Virus record (IMG/VR): IMGVR_UViG_3300028531_000001
Coordinates: 1-64,000 of that record
Length of the DNA: 64,000 nt
Source: a virus
Lineage: Duplodnaviria > Caudoviricetes
Strand: one strand, 5' to 3'
Shown piece by piece: positions 21,877 to 54,894 of the stretch. The translations under genes were made by a program, and so were the position numbers. How positions within the stretch are numbered: the stretch's first letter is position 1; each line of letters opens with the position of its first letter. The notes under the pieces are model-generated. The model was not told the origin of the DNA and made no database searches. It worked only from the letters and a program-made list of their open reading frames with translations.

Positions 21877-22114
21877 AGCCCCAGACTTAATCTCTGCGCA
21901 CGAAGTTTCCAAGTCTAGCGTCCCATCTAAAAGCCGGATTGTCACACTTCCTCACCAAGCCATCTTGTTCTTGCCGTCGCCGGTGAGCTTTTGATACATT
22001 CTCTCGGTGCGATGCGGGGACCTTGCTCACCGGCCCGACGTGAATCATTCGCGGGCAGAGGCCGGATCTTTCCCGCGTCGCGTGGAATCAACATTTGTTC
22101 CAGAAGAGGTGAGA

Positions 22115-22660
22115 ATGGGTCACCCCCTGCTCGCGGGCGAGGTGAGGCCGCGGCCACACTCGGACCTGCCGCTGAGGCCGACGGTGCGTTGGATGACCGC
22201 CGAGCACATCCGGGCGGCGGCGGAGATCGACTTCGCGGGCACGCCCTGGGACTGGACGGGGCCCCGCATGGCCGAGTTCCTGGCCCGACGCGGCTGCATG
22301 GGCCGGGTGGCCGAATCGGCCGGCTCGGCGGTCGGGTTCGCGTTGTACGAGGCGAGACGGCCGACGATCGAGGTGCACAAGCTGGTCGTGGACGCCGAAT
22401 ACCGCGGCCTGGGCGTCGGGGAGGCGTTGGTCCGGGCCCTCGCGGCGAAGCTCGACGGGGCGACCTGGGGGCGGCTGCTGATCAACGTGCGCGAGACCAA
22501 CCTGGACGGGCAGCTGTTCCTGCGCGAGCAGGGATTCCTGGGGCGGCGGGTGATCCGGGGCCACTTCCCCGACTCGGGCGAGGACGCGTTCGAGATGGTG
22601 CTGACGGCCGACCGGGCGAGGCTGGCCCGGCCGGGGTTCCTGGGGCGGAGGCCCGCATGA
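22115..22660 (+). CDS. GNAT acetyltransferase, RimI-like
   Basis: 'VDAEYRGLGVGEAL' motif A, 'VRETNLDGQLFL...GF', 'GEDAFEM'; SD GAGGTGA. Confidence 0.8.
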   Translation: MGHPLLAGEVRPRPHSDLPLRPTVRWMTAEHIRAAAEIDFAGTPWDWTGPRMAEFLARRGCMGRVAESAGSAVGFALYEARRPTIEVHKLVVDAEYRGLGVGEALVRALAAKLDGATWGRLLINVRETNLDGQLFLREQGFLGRRVIRGHFPDSGEDAFEMVLTADRARLARPGFLGRRPA

Positions 22661-23490
22661 GGCAGTATCTCGACCTCCTGCGGCACGTCATGGACCACGG
22701 CGAGGACCAGCCGTCGCGTTCCGTCCTGGCCAGCACGGGCGAGCGGCCGTCCACGCGGAGCGTCTTCGGCCATCAGTGCCGCCACGACCTACGCGACGGC
22801 TTCCCGATCGTCACGACGAAGTACGTCCCGTTCCGCCAGGTCGCCGCGGAGCTGGCGTGGTTCCTGAGCGGATCGACCAACGTCGCCCCGCTCCACGAAT
22901 CGGGCGTCCGCATCTGGGACGCCTGGGCGACGGAGGGCGGCGACCTCGGGCCCATCTACGGCGCGTTGTGGCGGAACTGGCAGGGCCGGGGCGGGCGTGT
23001 CGACCAGATCGCGGAACTGGCGGCGGGAATCCGGGCGGTGGCCGACGACCCGCACGACTCGCGGGCGAGGCGGCTGGTCCTCACGTCCTGGGACCCGTCG
23101 GCCATGCGGCAGGTCAAAGGCCCGTCGGGATGCCACACGCTCTGCCAGTTCTACGTCAGCAAAGGCCGGCTGTCCTGCCACCTCTACCAGCGGTCGGCGG
23201 ACCTGTTCCTGGGCGTCCCCTGGAACATCGCGTGCTACGCCCTGCTGACGCACCTGATGGCGAGCCTCTCGGGGCTCGAGCCGTTCGAGTTCATCCACTC
23301 GTTCGGCGACGCCCACATCTACGCGAACCACCTCGATCAGGTGGCCGAGCAACTCACGCGCGACCCCCTGCCCTTGCCGACGCTGAAGATCGACTCCCGC
23401 TTCGGCTCGATCGACCGGTTCGACCCGTCGTGGGTCTCACTCGATAGTTATGCGTCCCATCCCAGGCTCTCGGGCGAGGTGGCTATATGA
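22657..23490 (+). CDS. thyA: Thymidylate synthase
   Basis: MRQYLDLL, LGPIYG, catalytic GCH, YQRSADLFLGVPWNI, GDAHIY. Confidence 0.95.
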   Translation: MRQYLDLLRHVMDHGEDQPSRSVLASTGERPSTRSVFGHQCRHDLRDGFPIVTTKYVPFRQVAAELAWFLSGSTNVAPLHESGVRIWDAWATEGGDLGPIYGALWRNWQGRGGRVDQIAELAAGIRAVADDPHDSRARRLVLTSWDPSAMRQVKGPSGCHTLCQFYVSKGRLSCHLYQRSADLFLGVPWNIACYALLTHLMASLSGLEPFEFIHSFGDAHIYANHLDQVAEQLTRDPLPLPTLKIDSRFGSIDRFDPSWVSLDSYASHPRLSGEVAI

Positions 23491-24862: not shown

Positions 24863-25273
24863 CTACGACACTGAATCCGTCGAATCGTCCTCAATCGGGA
24901 TCAACTCCATCTTGACCGCCTTCCCATAGATCGCTGCGATCTTGTAGAGCGTATCGAGCGTCGGATTCAGGTGGCGGGCATTCTCCAGTTTGGAGATCGC
25001 CACGCGAGACACGCCCGACTTCTCGGCTGCCTGGTCGAGAGTCCAGCCATGCTCTTCCCTGGCGGTCTTGAGTTCAGACGCGACCTGCGTGATGAAGTAC
25101 CATTGCGGCTGGTACACCGTTCCGCCTTGGTCCTCAAAAAATCCCATCGCCCGTAGCCGCTCTTCGCTCGGCTGCTCCTTGTCGAGCCAGGCAATCTCGG
25201 CCCCTTCAGGCGTGTTGGGATCATAGTACGGATCGTATCCCGGTTCTCCCGGTTTTGGCGTTGGCTTGTCCAT
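24863..25273 (-). CDS. XRE-HTH antitoxin-like regulator
   Basis: 'LKTAREEHGWTLDQAAEKSGVSRVAISKLEN' HTH after an unstructured N-terminus; follows a toxin-like gene. Confidence 0.75.
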   Translation of the reverse strand: MDKPTPKPGEPGYDPYYDPNTPEGAEIAWLDKEQPSEERLRAMGFFEDQGGTVYQPQWYFITQVASELKTAREEHGWTLDQAAEKSGVSRVAISKLENARHLNPTLDTLYKIAAIYGKAVKMELIPIEDDSTDSVS

Positions 25274-25316: not shown

Positions 25317-25346
25317 GCTGGCCGGGGGTTGCAGCCCCCAGCCAGC
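25317..25346 (-). promoter_or_regulatory. Hairpin between the toxin and antitoxin genes
   Basis: GCTGGCTGGGGG-CTGCAA-CCCCCGGCCAGC then CTCTTTC on the minus strand. Confidence 0.6.
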
Positions 25347-25369: not shown

Positions 25370-25612
25370 CTAGACGAGGTAGGCTGTGATCACCCGGACC
25401 AGCTTAATCGGCTGGTGTCGTTTGACCCTGTAGACGACTAAGAACCGCTTTCCTTTGGCGGTCCACCCGAACCCGATCGGAAGTCCGCTTGATCGGCTTG
25501 CTTCCGGTTCGTGGTTCGGGTCGCTTATCACTCGCTCGCAGTCCTCCTTTGTGATTGGCCTGTGGGCGAAATGCCCCAGGTTCCATTCGTCCCACTCGAA
25601 CTCAATTTTCAA
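25370..25612 (-). CDS. BrnT/RelE-like toxin
   Basis: 'EFEWDEWNLGHF..RPITKEDCE' and 'FLVVY...VRVITAY'; TTG start with SD AAGGAGG. Confidence 0.7.
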   Translation of the reverse strand: MKIEFEWDEWNLGHFAHRPITKEDCERVISDPNHEPEASRSSGLPIGFGWTAKGKRFLVVYRVKRHQPIKLVRVITAYLV

Positions 25613-25791
25613 AGAGCCTCCTTTCGTCCGATCACCGATCGAACGAGTACACTTTAATGTTCGTCACGAATTAGTTCAAGATCGAAGTTTGAAAACTGTG
25701 AATTTTCGACGCATAAATGACTCATAAACGGCGCATAAAAACAGGGGCCGCGATGGGCCCCCGTGCTGCGACGATGGTGTGTGGCTGAGCT

Positions 25792-27162
25792 TTATCGCAG
25801 CGTCCCCTTCGCGAAGTTCGTCAGGTTATCCCCCTCCGAATCATTCCGCACCGTCGAAGGCTGAGCCGGCCCGCCCGCCTGGACCGTCCCGATGGCCGGG
25901 TACGGCAGCTTCTCGATCACGTCCTCGGCCACCCACCATCCCCCCGGCCCGTAGACGCCGTCCCGCCCCGCCGAGACGATCTGATACGTGTCCGGCTTGT
26001 GCCACCGGCTGTTGGGGATCGGCGGCGGCTTGAGCCCGCCCGTCGCGTAGGGCTCGGCCACCGGCAGGCTCGGCCCGCTGGTGTACGGGTTCGGGCCCGG
26101 CGAGACGACCAGCCCGCGGTACGTGGCGAAGGCACCGACGGGCTCCCCGTCCAGGTTGCAATCGTCGGGGTCGTAGCCCGATCCGTTGTAGGCGGAGAAG
26201 TAGGCGTAGGCCCGCCGCCCCGTCCCCGACCCGAGCGGATCGACGTAGCTGGGGAAGCCGTCCCCGTCGAGGTCCACTAATCGCCCGGCCTGGAACTCGA
26301 ACAGGGGCTTGTCGCGGTTGAGTTCGACCGAGTCGCCGATGAAGGGCTGGGTCTGGCTCTTGGCGAACCCCTGCGTCCCGAAGCCCCCGGCGTGTGGCGC
26401 CGGAAGGCCCCCGAGGAAGAACACCAGGCATTCGTCGCCGGTCAGCAGGACGGGGACGGGGTTGATCTTGCCGTCCCCGTCGAAGTCGTAGCCCCCGCCC
26501 CGCACCGGCAGCGGCTCCTCCAGCGGGATCGTGGACAGGACGACGCGGGGGAATGCCGCGTTCAGCCGACGCCGGGATTCCTCGCGGAACGGGGCCAGCT
26601 CGGGCGCCAGGTCCAGCCAGGTCGCGGCGGAGTAGTCGCCGGTCTCGCACAGGGCGATCTTGCTGGGCGGGTAGTGGCCACGCATCGACTTGTACGCCGC
26701 CTGCCCGGTGGCGAGCATGTTGATCTCGGCCGTGACCGTTGCGTCCTTGGCCGATCGAACCGCCCCGTTGATCGCGGGCAGCAGCAGGGCGATGAGGATC
26801 GCCAGCACGAACATGACGACCAGCAGTTCGACTAGGGTGAAGGCGTTGCGGGATGCTCGTTGATCGAGGTGGCAGCGATCGATTTGATCCCGGAGATTCC
26901 GCCCCACCGTGTTGGCAGTCAGCGTCTGGCCCGAAAGGTGGCCGCTGACGCGGTCAGCCCAATCCTTTGCGTCGGCGATATGAGTAATGCCAGCCTCTTC
27001 ATAGAGGTTAGAGTTGGTGACAATCGTGACTTTGTATTTCGTTTGCCCGAGGCAATCGATGGCCGCCCTGATATCGCCTCGCCGGGCCTGCCATTGGGAC
27101 GGAATTCCGTCTTTCCAGTTCGTCACAGTCCAATCCAGTCTCTTCACGTCGGTCGTAGCCAC
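25792..27162 (-). CDS. Fusion: 107-aa N-terminal domain + type IV pilin/pseudopilin (N-methylation motif)
   Basis: Internal RNA|FTLVELLVVMFVLAILIALLLPAI (Phe108 at 26841); 'YQIVSAGRDG' and 'DNLTNF' C-terminal motifs. Confidence 0.8.
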   Translation of the reverse strand: MATTDVKRLDWTVTNWKDGIPSQWQARRGDIRAAIDCLGQTKYKVTIVTNSNLYEEAGITHIADAKDWADRVSGHLSGQTLTANTVGRNLRDQIDRCHLDQRASRNAFTLVELLVVMFVLAILIALLLPAINGAVRSAKDATVTAEINMLATGQAAYKSMRGHYPPSKIALCETGDYSAATWLDLAPELAPFREESRRRLNAAFPRVVLSTIPLEEPLPVRGGGYDFDGDGKINPVPVLLTGDECLVFFLGGLPAPHAGGFGTQGFAKSQTQPFIGDSVELNRDKPLFEFQAGRLVDLDGDGFPSYVDPLGSGTGRRAYAYFSAYNGSGYDPDDCNLDGEPVGAFATYRGLVVSPGPNPYTSGPSLPVAEPYATGGLKPPPIPNSRWHKPDTYQIVSAGRDGVYGPGGWWVAEDVIEKLPYPAIGTVQAGGPAQPSTVRNDSEGDNLTNFAKGTLR

Positions 27163-27188
27163 AGTCCTGCCCTTTCAAAAGAAGCCGA

Positions 27189-27320
27189 TCAGTCCGCCAT
27201 CACGCTCACGGCCCACCCGTCGTTTGCAGCCTCGGCCCACTTGTATCCCGCCACCGCGACCGCCATGCAGAGCAGCAGGGCGGCCAGGATCAGGCGGGCG
27301 TCGGAGAGGTCAAGTCGCAT
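27189..27320 (-). CDS. Small membrane protein (43 aa)
   Basis: MRLDLSDARLILAALLLCMAVAVAGYKW... Confidence 0.45.
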   Translation of the reverse strand: MRLDLSDARLILAALLLCMAVAVAGYKWAEAANDGWAVSVMAD

Positions 27321-27669
27321 CGGCTCCGGCCTCCGATGAATGTTCCGCCCGAAGCACCTGGATTGCGTCAGCAAAGGTGAACCAGCGAAGCCGGTCGTAT
27401 TCGATCGTTGCGGAGTCGCCGTCGTCTCGGTCCTGAGAAGGCATTCTCTGGACAACGACATTAGCGGGACCAGATGTGTCGCGCGTGATCCCGTACGGGC
27501 CAGTCCTGCCACGCCCAACGCAGAGAACCGTCCCCTCGCTGAACAAAAGAAGCGTGCCCGGATCGCGATGCGGCTCCCTGCTATCGAGGCAGATCTCGGC
27601 AAACGTGGTCTCGCGATCTTCGGAGACCACGGACAAGACGCCGCTGCTGATGAAGATTAGGAGTTTCAA
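27310..27669 (-). CDS. Hypothetical protein
   Basis: 119 aa, coupled to neighbours, TTG start. Confidence 0.45.
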   Translation of the reverse strand: MKLLIFISSGVLSVVSEDRETTFAEICLDSREPHRDPGTLLLFSEGTVLCVGRGRTGPYGITRDTSGPANVVVQRMPSQDRDDGDSATIEYDRLRWFTFADAIQVLRAEHSSEAGADAT

Positions 27670-27890
27670 ACTTCAGCTCCAATGTTTTCGGTGTGTGCGA
27701 AGCAGGGATTCAAGCCATCGTTAAACGCCCAGATAACAAGATCAGCTTCCGCTCCACCCGGCTGATCGCTGAAATACATCAGGTTGCCCGAGAATCGCTT
27801 GACAAATACGAACTTTGGATTCGCTTTGCTGCCAACGGCACTCGGGTCATACAGGAGTCGCTCGCCCACTTTAGGCTTTCGAGTAAGCAT
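27666..27890 (-). CDS. Hypothetical protein (small beta domain)
   Basis: 74 aa, SD AAGGAG. Confidence 0.55.
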   Translation of the reverse strand: MLTRKPKVGERLLYDPSAVGSKANPKFVFVKRFSGNLMYFSDQPGGAEADLVIWAFNDGLNPCFAHTENIGAEV

Positions 27891-27940
27891 TCACTTGACT
27901 CCTTTCCTTGACCTGATAGTAAACTTCGCAACCTTGCTGC

Positions 27941-29772: not shown

Positions 29773-29801
29773 ATAGTACGCCGCATTTCTGGTGATGTCA
29801 A
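29773..29801 (-). promoter_or_regulatory. Sigma70-type promoter of leftward operon B
   Basis: TTGACA-17 nt-TACTAT on the minus strand. Confidence 0.8.
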
Positions 29802-44617: not shown

Positions 44618-45541
44618 ATGAGCATCGCCCCCTACGACCGCGACACCGAAATCGAAGCCTACGACGACGAAGAGACGCAGGAGGTCAACCTCGGCGGGAC
44701 CGCGATCGAGCTTGCGACGCGTGCCGAGATCGCCGCACAGGTGGCGGTGGCTCGCCAGTATCCGAGGTCGATCAAGCGATTCCTTAACACGGCACGGGAA
44801 ATGGCCACGCTCGACCCGCGCATGGCCGAGGCTTGCAACTACGCGGTCCCTCGCGGCGGCAAGATCATCGAAGGGCCGTCGGTCCGACTCGCCGAGATCG
44901 CCGCTTACGCCTGGGGCCACCTGAGGGTCGAGGCGAAGATCGTTTCCGAGGATGAGCGGTTCGTGACCGCCAGGGGCGTGTGCCATGACATGCAGACCAA
45001 CGTCTTCGTGGCTTACGAGACCAAGCGCAAGATCAGCTACTCCAACGGCCGCCGATACAACGACGACATGATCGCCACGACGGGCAACGCGGCGGCTTCC
45101 ATCGCCCTGCGCAACGCGATCTTCCGGGTCATCCCCAACGCCCTGATCAAGCCGCTGGCCGACGAGGCGAAGATGTGCGCCAAGGGGGACGTCAAGACGT
45201 TGTCGGCCCGCCGAAGCGCGTTGCTCGAGCACTTCGGCCGGCTCGGCGCCAAGCCGGAGGACGTCTACCGCGTCCTCGGTGTTGCCGGGGTGGAGGACAT
45301 CACCCTCGATCACCTCCTGACCATGCAGGGGATCGCCGCGGCCATCAAGGACGGCGAGACGACCTTCGAGTCTGTCTTCACCGTGCCTGTCACGGTGGCC
45401 AGCAAGTCCGAGGGAATCACGGCCACCCTGACGGCCAAACTCGCCGAATCCCCCGCCCCTTCGAAGGCCGAGCCCGCCCCGGCCGCGACGCCGAAGGTCG
45501 AGCCGGCGAAGAAGACCCGCGAGCCCGGCGAGGACGGCTGA
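44618..45541 (+). CDS. Putative single-strand annealing protein (YqaJ partner)
   Basis: 'RAEIAAQVAVARQYPRS...YAVPRGGKIIEGPSVRLAE'; near YqaJ. Confidence 0.6.
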   Translation: MSIAPYDRDTEIEAYDDEETQEVNLGGTAIELATRAEIAAQVAVARQYPRSIKRFLNTAREMATLDPRMAEACNYAVPRGGKIIEGPSVRLAEIAAYAWGHLRVEAKIVSEDERFVTARGVCHDMQTNVFVAYETKRKISYSNGRRYNDDMIATTGNAAASIALRNAIFRVIPNALIKPLADEAKMCAKGDVKTLSARRSALLEHFGRLGAKPEDVYRVLGVAGVEDITLDHLLTMQGIAAAIKDGETTFESVFTVPVTVASKSEGITATLTAKLAESPAPSKAEPAPAATPKVEPAKKTREPGEDG

Positions 45542-45549
45542 ACCACCGA

Positions 45550-45586
45550 GGGGCCTGCGGCGTGGGTCGCGGGCCCCCTGCTCTTT
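45550..45586 (+). terminator. Hairpin after the SSAP gene (weak U tract)
   Basis: GGGGCCTGCGGC-GTGG-GTCGCGGGCCCC then CTGCTCTTT. Confidence 0.45.
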
Positions 45587-45615
45587 CCCAAGACCGATCG
45601 GCACCGAGGTTCCCC

Positions 45616-48600
45616 ATGCACCAGCCGAGTATCCGAGCGTCGATCATCACCCGCAGGACGTACTGCCGACCTCTCGACGACGAGGGGACCGTATTCGAGA
45701 CCTGGCCGCAGGTGATCGACCGGGTCAAGTCGCATCAGCGATGGCTCTGGGAGAACGCCCAGGGGTTCAGCCTGTCTCCGAGTCAGGAAGACGAACTGGC
45801 GGAACTATCCGGCCTCATGCTCGACCGGAAGTTGATGCCCGCGGGCCGGACCCTCTGGCTCGGCGGGACGGACATCGTCAAGCGGCGGGCCGCATCCAAC
45901 TACAATTGTTCGTTTCTCAAAACGAAATCGGTCCACGACATCGTCGACGCGTTCTGGTTGCTGCTCCAGGGCTGCGGCGTCGGGTTCAAGATGGAGACGG
46001 GCGGGCTCAGCGGATTCAACAGGAAACTCGAAATCCAGGTCGCCCCCTCGACCCGGACCGACGCCAACGGGCGGGACACGAACGAGGAGCACTTCGACTC
46101 CGAGAGCGGCGTATGGACGATCAACGTCGGCGACTCTGCCGAGGCGTGGGCCAAGGCGGCCGGCAAACTCGTCGTCGGAAAGTTCCCCGCGAAGGTGCTC
46201 CGGATCGAGACGACCGAGGTCCGCCCGGCCGGGACTCGGCTCAAGGGTTACGGCTGGATCTGTGCTGGCGACTCGCAACTCCTGAAGGCGTTCACGGAGA
46301 TCGCCGGCATCCGCAACCGCAAGGCCGGGAAACTGCTCACGAAGCTCGACGTGCTCGACCTCGTGAACTGGCTCGGGACCGTGCTCTCGACCCGCCGCTC
46401 CGCCCAGGCCGCCCTCATGGATTACGGCGACAAGGAGTGGGAGGACTTCGCCACGGCCAAGGCCCCCGGCTATTGGGAGAAGAACCCGCAGCGGGCCCAG
46501 AGCAACAACGGCCTGATGTTCTGGGAGAAGCCGAGCCTTCGTGAAATCCGCTCGATCTTCAATATGATGGTCGAGCACGGGGGGGGCGAACCGAGCTTCA
46601 ACAACGCGGCCGAGGCCAGGCGTCGGGCCCCTTGGTTCGACGGTTTCAACCCCTGCGTGACCGGAGACACCTGGGTCCTGACCACCGAGGGGCCGAGGAA
46701 GGCTGTCGACCTCGTCGGGCAACCCTTCACGGCGATCGTCGATGGCCTGCCGCACGACTCGACCGACCGCGGGTTCTACCCGACCGGCGAGAAGATGGTC
46801 TACCGGGTCGAGACCGATCGGGGGTACTCGTTCGAGTGCACCGACAACCACCAGATTCAGGAGGTCTATTCGCTTACCGCGAAGTCGCGTCGGACCCGAT
46901 GGACGGAACTCAAGGATCTCAAGGTCGGAGACCGGATCAGCCTGCACAACCACGAGGACGCCGCGTGGTCAGGGGCCGGGAGCCGCGAGGAGGGCTGGCT
47001 GGTCGGCAGCCTTCTCGGAGACGGTGTCTTCATGGGTGGGAATGTCGAGACGGCCCGCCTGTCCTATTGGGGGCCGACGAAGGAAGTGATGGCCGGGATC
47101 GCCCGGGATTCGATCCTCTCGACCGTTAAGGCCCGATCGGACTGCGGGCGACGATCCCCCGGCGGGGTTCAGGAGATCAAGTATGATCGAATGAACCTCA
47201 GCAGCACCGGCCTGCGGTCGATGGCCGAGTCCTTCGGGCTAACCGCGATCAAGACCCTGGGGGATGAGGTCGAACATACGTCGTCGGACTTCCACGAGGG
47301 GTTCCTCTCGGGATGGTTCGACGCCGACGGATCGGTGTGCGGCGGTCAGTCACACGGCGTCTCGGTCCGCCTCACCTCGGTCATACTGAAGAACCTCTAT
47401 GCGGCTCAACGCATGCTGGCCCGGCTCGGGATCATCTGCAAGGTCTACAAGGATCGCCAACCCGAAGGACCTCGCACGCTCCCGGACGGCAAGGGCGGGG
47501 TCAAGGACTACAACTGCCAGGCCGGTCACGAATTGATCATCTCGGGCAGGAGCCTCGCCAGGTTCGCGGAACGTGTTGGCTTCCGGCATCCGGCCAAGAG
47601 TAAGAAGCTCGCGGCCAGGATGGACGCATACCAGCGAGGGCTCAACCGCGAGCGATTCACGGCCCGGATCAAGTCGATCAGGCCGGTCGGCGTCCAATCT
47701 GTCTACGACTGCACGATCCCGACGGCCAGCCAGTTCGACGGGAATGGGGTGAACCTCCACAACTGTTTCGAAATCATCCTGGCCGACCGTGGTTTCTGCA
47801 ACCTCTTCGACATCAACGTACTGCGGTTTGTTGATGACCATCATGGCCTGCACCGGGCGATCTATTTGGCCGGCAGGGCGAACTACCGCCAGACGCTCGT
47901 GGACTTGCGTGACGGCATCCTCCAACACTCGTGGCACGAGAACAACGAGTTCCTGCGGCTCTGCGGCGTGGGCCTGACGGGGCTCGTGACTCGGCCCGAC
48001 CTGGACGACTATGCGCTTCGGCAACTCCGCAACTCGGCGACGGCCGGGGCCTACTCGATCGCGGACGAACTCGGGCTGGAGCGGCCCAAGAACGTCACGA
48101 CGATCAAGCCGTCGGGCACGGTCTCGAAGATCATGGACTGCACCGAGGGGGCCCACAAGCCTCTCGGCCGGTACATCTTCAACAACGTCAACTTCTCCAG
48201 GCATGACCCGCTCGTCGGCATGCTCACCGACGCCGGATACGACGTGCTGGACAATCCCACCGACCCGGCGGCCGTGCTGGTCAAGATCCCGACCTCGTGG
48301 CCGACCGTGCCGTTCGGGCTCTCCCCCGCCGGAGTCCCGGTCAATCATGAGTCGGCGGTCGATCAGTTGGAGCGATACCGCAAACTCCAGAACAGCTACT
48401 GCGATCAGAACACGTCGATCACCGTCAGCTACGACCCGTCGGAAGTCCCGGCGATGTCGAAGTGGTTCGACAAGAACTGGGACAGCTACGTCGGTGCCGC
48501 CTTCCTGTTCCGCAACGACCCCACGAAGACAGCGGCCGACCTCGGGTTCGCGTATCTCCCGCAGGAGGTGGTCGACGCGGAGACGTACCGGAAGTACGAG

Positions 48601-48690
48601 AGTCGATTGAAGCCGATCGACATCGACGCGGCGTCGGGTGAGGACCTGATCGACGCGGACTGCTCGACCGGCGCGTGCCCGGTCCGGTGA
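45616..48690 (+). CDS. nrdJ: Class II (B12-dependent) ribonucleotide reductase, intein-containing
   Basis: TRRTYCR, MPAGRTLW, YNCSF, GCGVG, NP[intein]CFE, TTIKPSGT, CSTGACPVR. Confidence 0.92.
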   Translation: MHQPSIRASIITRRTYCRPLDDEGTVFETWPQVIDRVKSHQRWLWENAQGFSLSPSQEDELAELSGLMLDRKLMPAGRTLWLGGTDIVKRRAASNYNCSFLKTKSVHDIVDAFWLLLQGCGVGFKMETGGLSGFNRKLEIQVAPSTRTDANGRDTNEEHFDSESGVWTINVGDSAEAWAKAAGKLVVGKFPAKVLRIETTEVRPAGTRLKGYGWICAGDSQLLKAFTEIAGIRNRKAGKLLTKLDVLDLVNWLGTVLSTRRSAQAALMDYGDKEWEDFATAKAPGYWEKNPQRAQSNNGLMFWEKPSLREIRSIFNMMVEHGGGEPSFNNAAEARRRAPWFDGFNPCVTGDTWVLTTEGPRKAVDLVGQPFTAIVDGLPHDSTDRGFYPTGEKMVYRVETDRGYSFECTDNHQIQEVYSLTAKSRRTRWTELKDLKVGDRISLHNHEDAAWSGAGSREEGWLVGSLLGDGVFMGGNVETARLSYWGPTKEVMAGIARDSILSTVKARSDCGRRSPGGVQEIKYDRMNLSSTGLRSMAESFGLTAIKTLGDEVEHTSSDFHEGFLSGWFDADGSVCGGQSHGVSVRLTSVILKNLYAAQRMLARLGIICKVYKDRQPEGPRTLPDGKGGVKDYNCQAGHELIISGRSLARFAERVGFRHPAKSKKLAARMDAYQRGLNRERFTARIKSIRPVGVQSVYDCTIPTASQFDGNGVNLHNCFEIILADRGFCNLFDINVLRFVDDHHGLHRAIYLAGRANYRQTLVDLRDGILQHSWHENNEFLRLCGVGLTGLVTRPDLDDYALRQLRNSATAGAYSIADELGLERPKNVTTIKPSGTVSKIMDCTEGAHKPLGRYIFNNVNFSRHDPLVGMLTDAGYDVLDNPTDPAAVLVKIPTSWPTVPFGLSPAGVPVNHESAVDQLERYRKLQNSYCDQNTSITVSYDPSEVPAMSKWFDKNWDSYVGAAFLFRNDPTKTAADLGFAYLPQEVVDAETYRKYESRLKPIDIDAASGEDLIDADCSTGACPVR
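46654..47763 (+). mobile_element. Intein (370 aa) with LAGLIDADG endonuclease in nrdJ
   Basis: CVTGDTWV...VYDCTI...NLHN|C; GSLLGDG and GWFDADGS motifs. Confidence 0.93.
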
Positions 48691-51073: not shown

Positions 51074-52294
51074 GTGGCTTATCGCTGGGGGAAGATCAAC
51101 GACGGGGATCCATTCCACCGGATCACCAAGGACCTGCTCAGGCCGCTCCTGACGGCCGACCTAGGCAAATACGACGGGTGCCTGATCGCCAGCCTGATCG
51201 ACGAGAGTTGGACGAAGCCCTACGTGGAGTCGAAGCGGCGGCCGAATGCGGAGGTCGAACCCGTCCCATTCCGGGTGCCGTGCAGCCAGATCGCCCGCGA
51301 CTTCGGCTGCCCCAAGCAGCGGATCAGCAAGGCGAAGCGGACCCTGATCGCCCGCAGGATCATGATCGAATTGCCCGACGGGACGGTCCTCTTCAACAAG
51401 AATGTCGACGACTGGATCGGCCTGGACGGCCAGCCCCAGTTCACCGAAGGGCAACTCCAATTGTTTATACGGGATGGGATGGCATCGTCGAAGAAAACCA
51501 AGACGACACACAACTGTGTGACGAAAAAGGGGCGGTCGAAGCCAAACGACACACTCCAGGGTGACGAAACCGGGAAATCGGGCGGCCCCGACACACAACT
51601 GTGTGACGTTCTGCATGCCAGCGAGAATCCCGTATCCGGCGACACACAACTGTGTGACGCTCGACCGGAAAACGACACACAACTGTGTGACGCAACGACA
51701 CACTCGGCTGTGTCGTCCCACTATATAGGAACGCGCCCGTCAGAAGACTCAGAAGACTTCAATACAAGAGGTGCTACGCACCAATTCGCGGGCGGGCGCG
51801 ATGCCGGCGGCGGGGAGACCATCGGGGAGGGGCCGAGGAAGGTGCCCGACTTCCCCGCGGTGCTGCCCAGGCCGACCGACGTCCACCCCGGCCCACACGA
51901 GCCGGACTGGGAGCGGGTCGACTTCGCCCGGGGCCTGGCGATGAAGCTCTGGATCAACGACCGGCTGGGGCTGGACATCCGGGCCCACGCCCGCCAGTGG
52001 CCGAGCGAGTGGTTCGTGAGGGTCGTCAAGCGGCTCTGGGCCCAGCAGGCGTACCCGCACAGCTTCAAACTCCTGCGGACCATCCTGAACGGCTGGGACC
52101 GCAAGGGCGGGCCCGACGCGGGGCCGGAGGACGACTACGACGACAGGCTCGAGTTCATCCCGCAGTCGAAGCGGGGAGTCCTGCCCCTGTCCAAGCCGGG
52201 ACCCAGGCCGACTTCGGATGACAAATCCCTGAATGAGTTCATCCCCATATCCAAACGATTCGCCCAAGCCCAGGCCAACGGGAGCCCACTGTGA
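51074..52294 (+). CDS. Phage replication initiator (lambda O-like) with internal origin
   Basis: wHTH 'SQIARDFGCPKQRISKAKRTLIARRIM...FNKNVDDW'; iterons in the linker; directly upstream of dnaB. Confidence 0.75.
   Translation: MAYRWGKINDGDPFHRITKDLLRPLLTADLGKYDGCLIASLIDESWTKPYVESKRRPNAEVEPVPFRVPCSQIARDFGCPKQRISKAKRTLIARRIMIELPDGTVLFNKNVDDWIGLDGQPQFTEGQLQLFIRDGMASSKKTKTTHNCVTKKGRSKPNDTLQGDETGKSGGPDTQLCDVLHASENPVSGDTQLCDARPENDTQLCDATTHSAVSSHYIGTRPSEDSEDFNTRGATHQFAGGRDAGGGETIGEGPRKVPDFPAVLPRPTDVHPGPHEPDWERVDFARGLAMKLWINDRLGLDIRAHARQWPSEWFVRVVKRLWAQQAYPHSFKLLRTILNGWDRKGGPDAGPEDDYDDRLEFIPQSKRGVLPLSKPGPRPTSDDKSLNEFIPISKRFAQAQANGSPL
51505..51714. repeat. Origin iterons: four exact 19-mers GACACACAACTGTGTGACG plus two degenerate copies
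   Basis: Exact at 51505, 51590, 51641, 51674; degenerate at 51548, 51697. Confidence 0.92.
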
Positions 52295-54894
52295 GCCGCG
52301 AACCCAGGAACAATCATCCGCTTTCCGGCAAGATGCCGCCGTCGAATGTCGCCGTCGAGGCCGAGGTGCTCGGGGCGTGCCTGATGAGCCGGGAGGCGAT
52401 CGACGAGGTAGCCGACGTGCTCAGGTCCGAGGACTTCTTCCGGGCGTGGCACGGGGAAGTCTGGTCCGCGATCAAGGGGCTCTGGTCGAAGGGCGAGCCG
52501 GTCACAATCGCGTCGGTCGCCGAAGCCCTGAAGGGCGAGGACAAGGCCGCCGACTTCGCCTCGCTGGCCGAGATCACCGCGAACACGCCGCACTCGGCGG
52601 ACGCCCGGTACAACGCCGAGATCGTGAGGCAGAAGGCGGTCGGCCGGGAATTGATTCGCTGGTCGAACGAGGTCCTTGCGGCGGCCTACGCCCAGCAGGA
52701 CACGAGCAACGCCCAGGTCCAGGACGCCCTCTCCGGTTTACTCAAGATCGCGGACCGCGGGGCGACCTCCCGGGTGTATGACGCCCCCGCGTTCATGGAG
52801 ATCGCCTGGAACGGACTCCAGGAGCGACGCCTCGGCAAGGCGACTGGGCTGAAGATCGGATTCCCCCAACTCGACGAACTGATCGGCGGGTTCGCGAATC
52901 AGCAACTGATCATCGTCGCGGCCAGGCCGGCGATGGGCAAGACCGCGTTCGCCATGCGGATTGCCGAGGCGTTCGCCGTAGACCAGGGACTCCCGACGCT
53001 GATGTTCAGCATGGAGATGGGGGTCGAGGAATTGGCGGACCGGCTGTGGAGCGGCCGCTCCCAGGTCATGGCCGACAAACTCAAGAACCCGATGTACCTG
53101 AACGACTCGGACGAAAACAGGCTCGGCAAGGCCCACCGGGACCTGGCGGATTCGGCCCTCCACATCGACGACACCGCGGCCCGGAGCGTGGAGCAGATCG
53201 CCGCGACCGCCAGGCGTCATGCCGGCCGGGGCGGGCTGAAGGCGGTGATCGTGGACTATCTGCAATTGATCGAGGAGGACTCCGATCGGTCCAGCCGGCA
53301 GGAGGAGGTCGCCCGGATCACCCGGTCGTTGAAGGCCCTCGCCAAGGAACTCAACCTGCCAGTCGTGGCGCTCTCGCAGTTGAACCGCAAGAGCGAGGAT
53401 CGCCCGGATAAGAGGCCGAAGCTGTCGGACTTACGGGAGTGCGTCACGGCCGACACGACGATTTACTGCTCGAGGACCGGTCGTATCCGGACCGTCGGCG
53501 AGTACGTCTCGTCCGGCGTCGGGCCGTCGGTCTACGGACTGGACGATCGGGCATCGTCGGGGCCGTGGAAGGTCGGGACGTCCAAGGCCGAGCCGTTCTG
53601 GTCCACCGGGGTCAAGCCCGTGTTCCGAGTCAGGACGGCCACCGGCCGGCAGATCCGCTGCACCGCGAACCATCCCCTCCGGACGATCGGCGGGTGGAAG
53701 CCCCTGGAAGAAATCCGGGTCGGCCAGCGGATCGCCTCGCCCCGATTCCTCCCCGAGCCATCGTCGGCGGCCGACCCGATGCACCGCGACGAGGCGAGGC
53801 TGCTGGGCTACCTGATCAGCGACGGCACGTATCTCCCGCAGCGGAGCGTCGGGTATGTGAAGGCCGACCCCGCGATGGTCTCCGAGGTCGAGCGGATCGC
53901 GAGGGATCGGTTCGGGATCGAGGCGAAGGACCATGCGTGCCGGGGGCCGGCGAGGCAGATCGAACTCACCCGGAGGGATTGCGGCCCCGGCGGGAACCCG
54001 GTCATCGAGTGGCTGAAGTCGCTGGGGATTCACGGCCAGAAGGGCCACCGGAAGACGATCCCGGATGCCCTGCTCTCCTCGCCGAACGAGATCGTCTCCG
54101 AGTTCATGGCCACGCTCTGGGCGGGCGACGGGTGCGTGACGAGGCGGAAGCACGGCGGGTACGCCCTGAAGTTTAGTTCCACGAGCATGCGGCTCCTGGA
54201 GCAGATGCAGATGCTCCTGCTCCGGTTCCGGATTGTCTCGGTGCTCGGCAAGCCCGGCCGCAACACGAAATCGACCCGGGACATCGCGTTGCTCTCGATC
54301 TCGGACTCGAGGCAGGTCATCCGCTTCTCGGAGCACTTCGCCCTCCCCGGCCGGAAGGGCGAGCAACTCGAGTACGCCGCCGACGAGTGCCGGATGATGG
54401 ACGAGAACTCGCACATCGACCGGATGCCCATCGAGGCCACCGCGATGATCTCGTCGGCCAAGCGGGAGGCCGGACTGTCCTGGTCGGGCCTCGGCTACCG
54501 GTGCCAGGGCAAGGAGATCCACCCCGGCCGATTCGCCGAACTGGCGGACCGGCTCGGCCACCGCGGGATGCAGTCGGTCGGGGCGGCGGACGTGCTCTGG
54601 GACAAGATCGTCTCGATCGAACCCGACGGCGAGGCCGAGACCTTCGACGTTCGGGTCCCGGGCATCCACAATTTCGTCGCCGGCGGGATCTTCGCCCACA
54701 ACAGCGGCGCGATCGAGCAGGACGCCGACAAGGTGATCCTACTCCACCGTCCCGAATACTACGACCCGACCGACATGCCCGGGACCGCCGAGGTGATCGT
54801 CGCGAAGAACCGCAGCGGGCAGACCGGGACCGTGCGGCTGAGGTGGGACAAGGAGACAACCAGATTCTCCGTCGATCCCGACGAGCAGTTCTGA
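52291..54894 (+). CDS. dnaB: Replicative DNA helicase, intein-containing
   Basis: AARPAMGKT, FSMEM, VDYLQL, LSQLNR, LRE[intein]SGAIEQDAD, KNRSG. Confidence 0.95.
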   Translation: MSREPRNNHPLSGKMPPSNVAVEAEVLGACLMSREAIDEVADVLRSEDFFRAWHGEVWSAIKGLWSKGEPVTIASVAEALKGEDKAADFASLAEITANTPHSADARYNAEIVRQKAVGRELIRWSNEVLAAAYAQQDTSNAQVQDALSGLLKIADRGATSRVYDAPAFMEIAWNGLQERRLGKATGLKIGFPQLDELIGGFANQQLIIVAARPAMGKTAFAMRIAEAFAVDQGLPTLMFSMEMGVEELADRLWSGRSQVMADKLKNPMYLNDSDENRLGKAHRDLADSALHIDDTAARSVEQIAATARRHAGRGGLKAVIVDYLQLIEEDSDRSSRQEEVARITRSLKALAKELNLPVVALSQLNRKSEDRPDKRPKLSDLRECVTADTTIYCSRTGRIRTVGEYVSSGVGPSVYGLDDRASSGPWKVGTSKAEPFWSTGVKPVFRVRTATGRQIRCTANHPLRTIGGWKPLEEIRVGQRIASPRFLPEPSSAADPMHRDEARLLGYLISDGTYLPQRSVGYVKADPAMVSEVERIARDRFGIEAKDHACRGPARQIELTRRDCGPGGNPVIEWLKSLGIHGQKGHRKTIPDALLSSPNEIVSEFMATLWAGDGCVTRRKHGGYALKFSSTSMRLLEQMQMLLLRFRIVSVLGKPGRNTKSTRDIALLSISDSRQVIRFSEHFALPGRKGEQLEYAADECRMMDENSHIDRMPIEATAMISSAKREAGLSWSGLGYRCQGKEIHPGRFAELADRLGHRGMQSVGAADVLWDKIVSIEPDGEAETFDVRVPGIHNFVAGGIFAHNSGAIEQDADKVILLHRPEYYDPTDMPGTAEVIVAKNRSGQTGTVRLRWDKETTRFSVDPDEQF
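53440..54702 (+). mobile_element. Intein (421 aa) with LAGLIDADG endonuclease in dnaB
   Basis: CVTADT...TANHP...FAHN|S; GYLISDG and LWAGDG motifs. Confidence 0.93.

Follow-up and report, generated by a model that had tools for sequence, protein, structure and literature searches.

The locus described here lies in the window, namely, the stretch of 64,000 nucleotides that was analysed (bases 1-64000 of a linear, 76.9-kb IMG/VR virus record with a CheckV completeness of 83%). PHROG matches across the window indicate a tailed phage. Genes for virion proteins and the tape measure occupy 0.8-10 kb of the window, and to the right of the virion genes are found those for an Ant-like anti-repressor, thymidylate synthase (ThyA), ParA, a sliding clamp, a RecE-like exonuclease, ribonucleotide reductase, an O-like initiator, and DnaB. 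The carrier of the pilin gene that is the subject of this work is probably a temperate, plasmid-like phage of Isosphaeraceae-type planctomycetes.

The ORFs for ribonucleotide reductase (45175-48690, plus strand, 1171 aa) and DnaB (52291-54894, plus strand, 867 aa) are far above the usual length, and both contain an internal stretch matching the same PHROG (30356), with the DnaB match itself split into two parts; both ORFs probably carry inteins. In the TTG-initiated, 499-aa ORF at 21991-23490 (plus strand), only residues 223-498 match thymidylate synthase, which reflects either an N-terminal fusion of about 220 residues or read-through of a separate upstream gene.

An accessory operon that ends with a pilin gene

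Between the gene for a putative XRE repressor and parA, the latter located across the promoter, lies a leftward accessory operon of small genes, including two for single-pass membrane proteins, with the pilin gene in the last position. The operon is headed by a sigma-70-like promoter, TTGACA-17-TACTAT (29773..29801, minus strand), and ends at a terminator-like hairpin with a T-run (25741..25764, minus strand), 28 nt past the pilin stop codon. Directly upstream of the pilin gene is the gene for a 43-aa single-pass membrane protein (27189..27320, minus strand) that is kept in all close relatives (the contigs or loci denoted L001, L089, L112, and L113). Other loci that carry a related pilin also have small membrane proteins nearby: L087 encodes one of 65 aa at the position of the 43-aa protein, and L086 encodes two tiny ones just downstream of its pilin gene. 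A 21-nt direct repeat of 86% identity (26780-26800 and 27271-27291) joins the helix-coding portions of the pilin gene (ILIALLL) and the gene for the 43-aa protein (ILAALLL), and probably represents merely similar hydrophobic coding.

Beyond the operon terminator follows a small toxin-like gene, with a terminator-like hairpin of its own (25317-25346), which encodes an 80-aa protein (25370-25612, minus strand) that weakly matches DUF4258 (E 0.036) and, by eye, is BrnT-like. After it comes the gene for a 136-aa XRE-type HTH protein (24863-25273, minus strand). The two may form a toxin-antitoxin pair or belong to a phage repressor region; the gene pair is 96.6% identical in L112.

The small neighbour genes vary from one relative to another, encoding 74 aa in the window, 148 aa in L001 and L113, about 115 aa in L089, and 79 and 107 aa in L112. 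In the interval between the genes for a 117-aa membrane protein and the 43-aa protein (27666-27932 in the window), the window has the 74-aa gene, L112 none, and L001 and L113 the 148-aa gene; L112 also has two additional genes behind its pilin gene. Given these differences, the pilin operon is a hot spot at which accessory genes are exchanged. Polymorphic toxin-like systems, in which an adjacent immunity gene varies together with a variable domain, offer a possible comparison for this neighbourhood and for the variable cassettes of the pilin gene described below, but no family of toxins or immunity proteins was recognised.

The pilin body and its class III signal

The last gene of the operon is a single ORF encoding 456 aa (25792..27162, minus strand; GTG start at 27162-27160, stop at 25794-25792) that comprises an N-terminal domain, a class III signal, and a GspG-like pilin. 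The original prediction, made from this sequence alone, described one ORF with an intact motif at residue 108, and its coordinates hold: the Pfam N_methyl model (PF07963) matches residues 104-128 (26779..26853, minus strand) with 27.1 bits against a cut-off of 21.2 (31.7 bits in a six-frame search), and the NCBIfam GspG, ComGC, and IV_pilin_GFxxxE models match from residue 106-108. The predicted cleavage site, RNA/FTLVE (the slash marks the scissile bond), falls between A107 (26844-26842) and F108 (26841-26839), with E112 as the Glu at +5. A type IV pilin signal comprises Gly or Ala at -1, a Phe at +1, a Glu at +5, and about 20 hydrophobic residues thereafter that form the alpha-1N helix. The protein in the window has all of these features but not the usual short, hydrophilic leader at the N-terminus: its leader is 107 residues long compared to 4-23 residues in the pilin family. 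We considered the possibility that the Ala at -1 was a phage-specific, disabling change and rejected it, given that this residue is common in the family (16 of the 111 members). Neither a prepilin peptidase (Peptidase_A24) nor a second prepilin was found to be encoded by the phage record.

In the 120 listed of the 761 homologs (the window's own cluster aside), the similarity covers only residues 105-456 or thereabouts, with 37-46% identity in the pilin body, and the named cellular homologs, from Isosphaeraceae (Paludisphaera and strain EP7), show 38-41%. The homolog from Paludisphaera borealis (P0108) is encoded directly after a run of pilB-pilT-pilB-pilC-like genes (with MshEN/T2SSE, T2SSE, MshEN/T2SSE, and T2SSF domains, respectively) and is followed by four further, larger prepilin-like genes. 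Its place as the first prepilin gene behind the assembly genes, a position that applies to the homolog and not to the phage gene, marks the members of this family as probable major subunits of type IV filament systems.

The AlphaFold2 model of the pilin, built on 112 sequences, has a pLDDT above 90 across the body. It comprises a 52-residue alpha-1 helix (residues 110-161; 26680..26835, minus strand; pLDDT above 94) and a predicted periplasmic head of 295 residues (162-456; 25795..26679, minus strand). Among the top VIA-align matches of the model are the major pseudopilins EpsG (4lw9_A; Z 6.9, rmsd 3.2, 104 of 119 residues aligned, 22% identity) and PulG (5wda_A; Z 6.1, 120 of 130 aligned), both below the level of Z 8 at which a match is clear; the model suggests a GspG-like core with large insertions. 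The curated GspG model, TIGR01710, scored 37.2 bits against a cut-off of 88.85, over residues 107-168 only; Pfam T2SSG did not match the ORF; and PHROG 3433, annotated as 'pilin' in the category of moron, auxiliary metabolic gene and host takeover, matched weakly (E 6e-4) over residues 104-146, that is, the N-terminal helix only, no PHROG being matched by the pilin body or by the extension.

When the window is compared to L001, dN/dS in the body (residues 105-456) is about 0.20 along the whole length. The phage pilin as a whole, including its head, is therefore a functional protein.

Other copies of this pilin family in phage-like contexts have ordinary short leaders, namely, those in L086 (with genes for a D5-type primase and a UvrD helicase nearby), L087 (with ParB, ThyX, and dUTPase), and L005 (an IMG/VR contig). 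One candidate sister of the window's pilin, P0004, has the highest identity to it, yet is not its sister in a FastTree tree of 112 bodies and was rejected as such. Because the support near the phage pair in this tree is weak (0.54), we make no claim of a single phage clade.

An exchangeable N-terminal cassette

The extension contains no hydrophobic segment and is predicted by AlphaFold2 to form a beta-meander (strands at about residues 31-59) followed by a helix (62-75) and a second helix that runs into the cleavage site, with pLDDT of 65-80. It matched nothing in Pfam, NCBIfam, or PHROGs, nor did word-indexed searches, either with the single sequence or with an alignment of its two related types (A and A', see below), or Foldseek. 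Against 1.84 billion representatives, phmmer retrieved only repetitive Ig-like adhesins, aligned over about 35 residues per repeat, which we rejected as motif or repeat matches, and in the ESM Atlas, the best score was 0.85, to unnamed clusters, with nothing above background. Two folds proposed by VIA-align were likewise rejected as lying within the stated background: that of the TriTu immunity protein (Z 5.3, with the stand-alone model of the extension) and that of PSRP-3/Ycf65 (Z 8.0-7.2, with the domain taken from the full-length model). Given scores in the background range and two models that disagree over the N-terminal 30 residues, no fold is assigned.

The most informative feature of the extension is beyond the reach of any reading of a single sequence: as judged by comparison of related loci, the extension is an in-frame swappable, polymorphic cassette (type A in the window, 26852..27159, minus strand). 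The window and L112, from ENA, are 93% identical from the gene for the 43-aa protein through the GTG start of the pilin gene and, from codon R105 onwards, again 93% identical through the remainder of the pilin; in L112, the GTG and R105 are separated by 260 unrelated bases that encode a different, 91-aa extension without similarity to that in the window. The same type of replacement is seen in a second lineage, the pilin body of which has 78% protein identity to that of the window. In this lineage, L001, L113, and P0133 encode an extension of 105 aa that is distantly homologous to the one in the window (type A'), with conserved islands LDW and AG..IADA, and L089, the body of which is 98.9% identical in DNA to that of L001, counted from the Phe+1 codon, encodes an unrelated one. 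The extension in L089 (L089:851-1114) is ACP-like, with a weak PP-binding match (E 0.03, below the cut-off) and a GxxDS motif, and leads into MKLSRG/F. In P0018/L002, a pilin further removed, the extension is RHH-like and 58 aa long (L002:1381-1554; RHH_1, E 0.0017, just below the cut-off), and an ATG preceded by a strong SD is its sole plausible start.

In both close pairs, window/L112 and L001/L089, the flanks share 93-99% identity, which breaks off precisely at the start codon on one side and at position -3 or +1 relative to the cleavage site on the other, and no notable repeats were found at the cassette borders when a palindromic or hairpin element was sought. BLASTP detected no similarity between the cassette types. 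The upstream border is formed by a ribosome-binding-site-like sequence, GAAAGGGCAG (27176-27167), and the GTG start, which together (27160..27176, minus strand) are kept with identical spacing, GAAAGGGCAG-N4-GTG, in L001, L089, and L112, that is, in four cassette variants counting the window, even though the sequence downstream differs. At the other border, all five cassettes end canonically before the Phe, in RNA, RKA, SRG, or RSG ([RKS][RKNS][GA]/F), with a net positive charge in the last 15 residues and no hydrophobic stretch, properties that fit an N-in topology and recognition by the peptidase.

The original prediction had held that the N-terminal part was compositionally distinct from the pilin part, and the difference is real: codons 1-107 have a GC3 of 0.67, compared to 0.92 for the body. 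It extends to the relatives, where all four cassettes from the close phage relatives have a GC3 of 0.50-0.66, below the 0.92 of the window-type pilin body. Between the window and L001, dN/dS of the extension is saturated and uninformative; the extension either evolves very fast or is replaced. The turnover of the cassettes could be neutral. Searches for close relatives found none in IMG/VR beyond the window's own record, none among GenBank phages, and none among GTDB species genomes.

Predicted processing of the precursor and comparison with known systems

The most likely outcome, somewhat more probable than not at roughly 0.55, is that a prepilin peptidase of the host cleaves this precursor, yielding a phage pilin and setting a cytoplasmic domain free, essentially as the original prediction had it, and this plausible reading is the one we prefer. 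Cleavage is judged most likely because every cassette keeps a canonical leader end and because the entire pilin is under purifying selection. Prepilins are inserted with the leader in the cytoplasm and are cut at the cytoplasmic face after Gly or Ala, and only processed pilins are assembled (reviewed in PMC10191384). In the scenario that we envisage, the phage would have captured the probable major type IV filament subunit of its host, a GspG-like pilin, and would translate it from the conserved ribosome-binding site and GTG that precede the class III signal by 107 codons. The product, therefore, would be a three-part precursor, with a cytoplasmic domain of about 100 aa, the alpha-1 helix, and the periplasmic head, in which the hydrophobic helix would serve as an N-in signal anchor; nothing in the sequence conflicts with a cytoplasmic domain ahead of such an anchor. 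The host peptidase would then cut after Ala107 at the cytoplasmic face, so that the phage would exploit a host enzyme to process a two-in-one precursor. The mature phage pilin would enter the filament machinery of the host or compete in it, re-surfacing or disturbing the filament in the manner of the published phage pilins, and, by the same analogy, might jam the pilus or type II secretion system or cause superinfection exclusion, as originally suggested. The N-terminal polypeptide freed into the cytoplasm could have an activity of its own or be a tolerated passenger.

Distinctly less probable, although the strongest of the alternatives, is an uncleaved or slowly cleaved tethered inhibitor or decoy. 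Under this alternative, the N-terminal domain would be too bulky for the precursor to be processed or extracted from the membrane; guided by its pilin moiety, the protein would reach the pilus platform or the peptidase, where the cytoplasmic domain would block PilB, PilM, PilC, or PilD, so that pili would be shut down and pilus-dependent phages excluded. Tip, Aqs1, and PfsE, known phage inhibitors of pili, indeed target components of the machine in the cytoplasm or inner membrane; polymorphism of a cytoplasmic domain is in keeping with an arms race against a target in the same compartment; and the conserved 43-aa membrane protein encoded directly upstream is compatible with such a role. Furthermore, we know of no reported prepilin with a folding leader of about 100 residues, and peptidase cleavage behind a folded domain of this size is without known precedent. 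Conversely, a mere anchor would not need a head, whereas here the whole body, including the 295-residue head, evolves with a dN/dS of 0.20; the canonical leader end and the F+1/E+5 pair are found in every independent cassette; and ACP-like and RHH-like cassettes are unlike variants of a single inhibitor.

That the gene is an ordinary phage prepilin started at an internal GTG, with the 85 upstream codons untranslated or only incidentally translated, is unlikely. The original prediction saw no separate ATG or SD just before the motif, and, indeed, there is no in-frame ATG within the 107 extension codons; it did not mention, however, the in-frame GTG at codon 86 (26905..26907, minus strand), the sole candidate internal start, 22 codons before the cleavage site. 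The resulting 22-residue leader would fall in the modal range of the family (4-23 residues), and other candidates exist in the relatives: in L001, GTG and TTG codons occur at a distance of 26-30 codons from the site, one of them near a GGAG, and L089 has an ATG six codons before it, where dual initiation is possible. Nevertheless, GTG86 has no SD-like sequence, although purine-rich sites similar to GAAAGGGCAG precede many genes of this phage, and no positional counterpart in the relatives, the candidate starts not being conserved in position. Because the constant region begins only at -3 or +1, that is, 0-3 codons ahead of the cleavage site, there is no conserved internal initiation region. 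In contrast to the gene in the window, an ATG lies no more than about 20 codons from the motif in nearly all of the other prepilin genes that were examined, at 80 viral and 24 metagenome loci. The upstream frame, moreover, is open in all five cassette variants; an extension frame as long as this is open by chance in 1.9% of shuffles for the window and 1.1% for L001; and the codon-usage log-likelihood, trained on the lower-GC genes of the phage, is positive in frame 0 only, in the window and L001 alike. Together with the conserved ribosome-binding site and GTG ahead, these coding statistics make translation of the 107-codon extension the most likely case. The original prediction had itself named internal initiation near 26860 as a threat to its reading; such a start is not supported by the data, the only conserved start signal being the upstream one; in the window, internal initiation might at most yield a minor second product.

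An assembly, frameshift, or gene-calling artefact that fused two separate genes, the other threat then foreseen and one to which the GC3 step at the junction (0.67 to 0.92) might seem to point, is extremely improbable and can be excluded, as far as sequence data permit, because the same fused layout recurs in at least six independent assemblies, namely, a 63-kb Logan/ENA contig that encodes an identical protein and L001, L113, P0133, L112, and L089, the homologs with the same fusion for which the original prediction had called, which come from ENA and JGI assemblies of other samples and represent four cassette types, all in frame.

Returning to the preferred reading, in which the precursor is cut, it would follow that prepilin peptidases tolerate large N-terminal cargo, that phages exploit a host signal peptidase for polyprotein-like processing, and that nature offers a portable module for membrane tethering and release; if the precursor is not cut, it would represent a novel route by which an inhibitor is directed to the pilus machine. 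We tentatively consider a broader possibility, doubtful as it still is, that the class III signal of these leader-domain prepilins is a fixed docking and cleavage module through which interchangeable cytoplasmic effector domains (the beta-rich orphan of the window, ACP-like, RHH-like, and others) are brought to the inner membrane face at the pilus machine, to be released or held there. Should this be the case, such proteins would form a new class and would be the first prepilin peptidase substrates in which the leader is a functional protein. Either way, pilin leaders are usually treated as short, disposable tags, whereas here a predicted folded domain of 58-107 residues is swapped between near-identical phages, and a precursor of this design apparently is maintained by selection in several uncultured phages.

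Tip, Aqs1, PfsE, and PlzR are small phage inhibitors of type IV pili, and PfsE, in particular, is a small membrane protein of Pf phage that blocks them. Like the gene in the window, these are phage accessory genes; their products, as that of the window gene might, target the pilus machine from within the cytoplasm or the membrane, and the 43-aa neighbour resembles PfsE in size and topology. Unlike the protein described here, none of the four is a pilin or a pilin fusion, and no sequence similarity to any of them was found.

The long pilin leaders known so far extend over some tens of residues and are not known to form folded domains. Those described as 'very long' in type IVb pilins and in pilins of Streptococcus sanguinis (PMC10191384) share with the present ones a variable length, a hydrophilic character, and a Gly or Ala end, along with a cytoplasmic location and removal by prepilin peptidase, both of which are predicted here (PMC10191384); in contrast to them, the leaders here comprise 58-107 residues, are predicted to fold, and are exchanged as a module. 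In the literature searched, no pilin precursor with a long, folded, polymorphic N-terminal domain was found described.

The closest relatives in kind are pilins carried by viruses. According to the accessible part of Sztanko et al. (Cell Rep 2026, PMC12952977), pilins encoded by phages, namely, the prophage-encoded P-FimU of Pseudomonas F10-like phages and P-PilA, the genes for which are found in Xylella prophages and in some virulent phages, enter the pilus and block adsorption of competing phages. The window phage similarly encodes a pilin that has diverged from a type IV pilus subunit of its host, and by analogy, entry into the pilus and blocking of competitors is the most likely kind of benefit here as well. 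The differences are that P-FimU and P-PilA are ordinary or truncated pilins, for which that part of the paper mentions neither a long N-terminal domain nor leader cassette exchange, both of which are seen in the window and its relatives, and that the present case involves a planctomycete host and a GspG-like subunit with a head of about 300 aa. Likewise, the SNJ2 provirus of Natrinema, in the portion of Xiang et al. (Cell Rep 2025, PMC12426801) available to us, encodes major type IV pilins that use the secretion and assembly machinery of the host, and the window phage resembles it in bearing a major pilin; SNJ2, however, is archaeal, and in the same portion, no domain before the signal is reported. 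Planctomycetes, in which pili and phages have barely been studied, thus join the few systems with phage-carried host pilins. Phage-borne pilins as such are already known; the polymorphic leader domain appears to be new.
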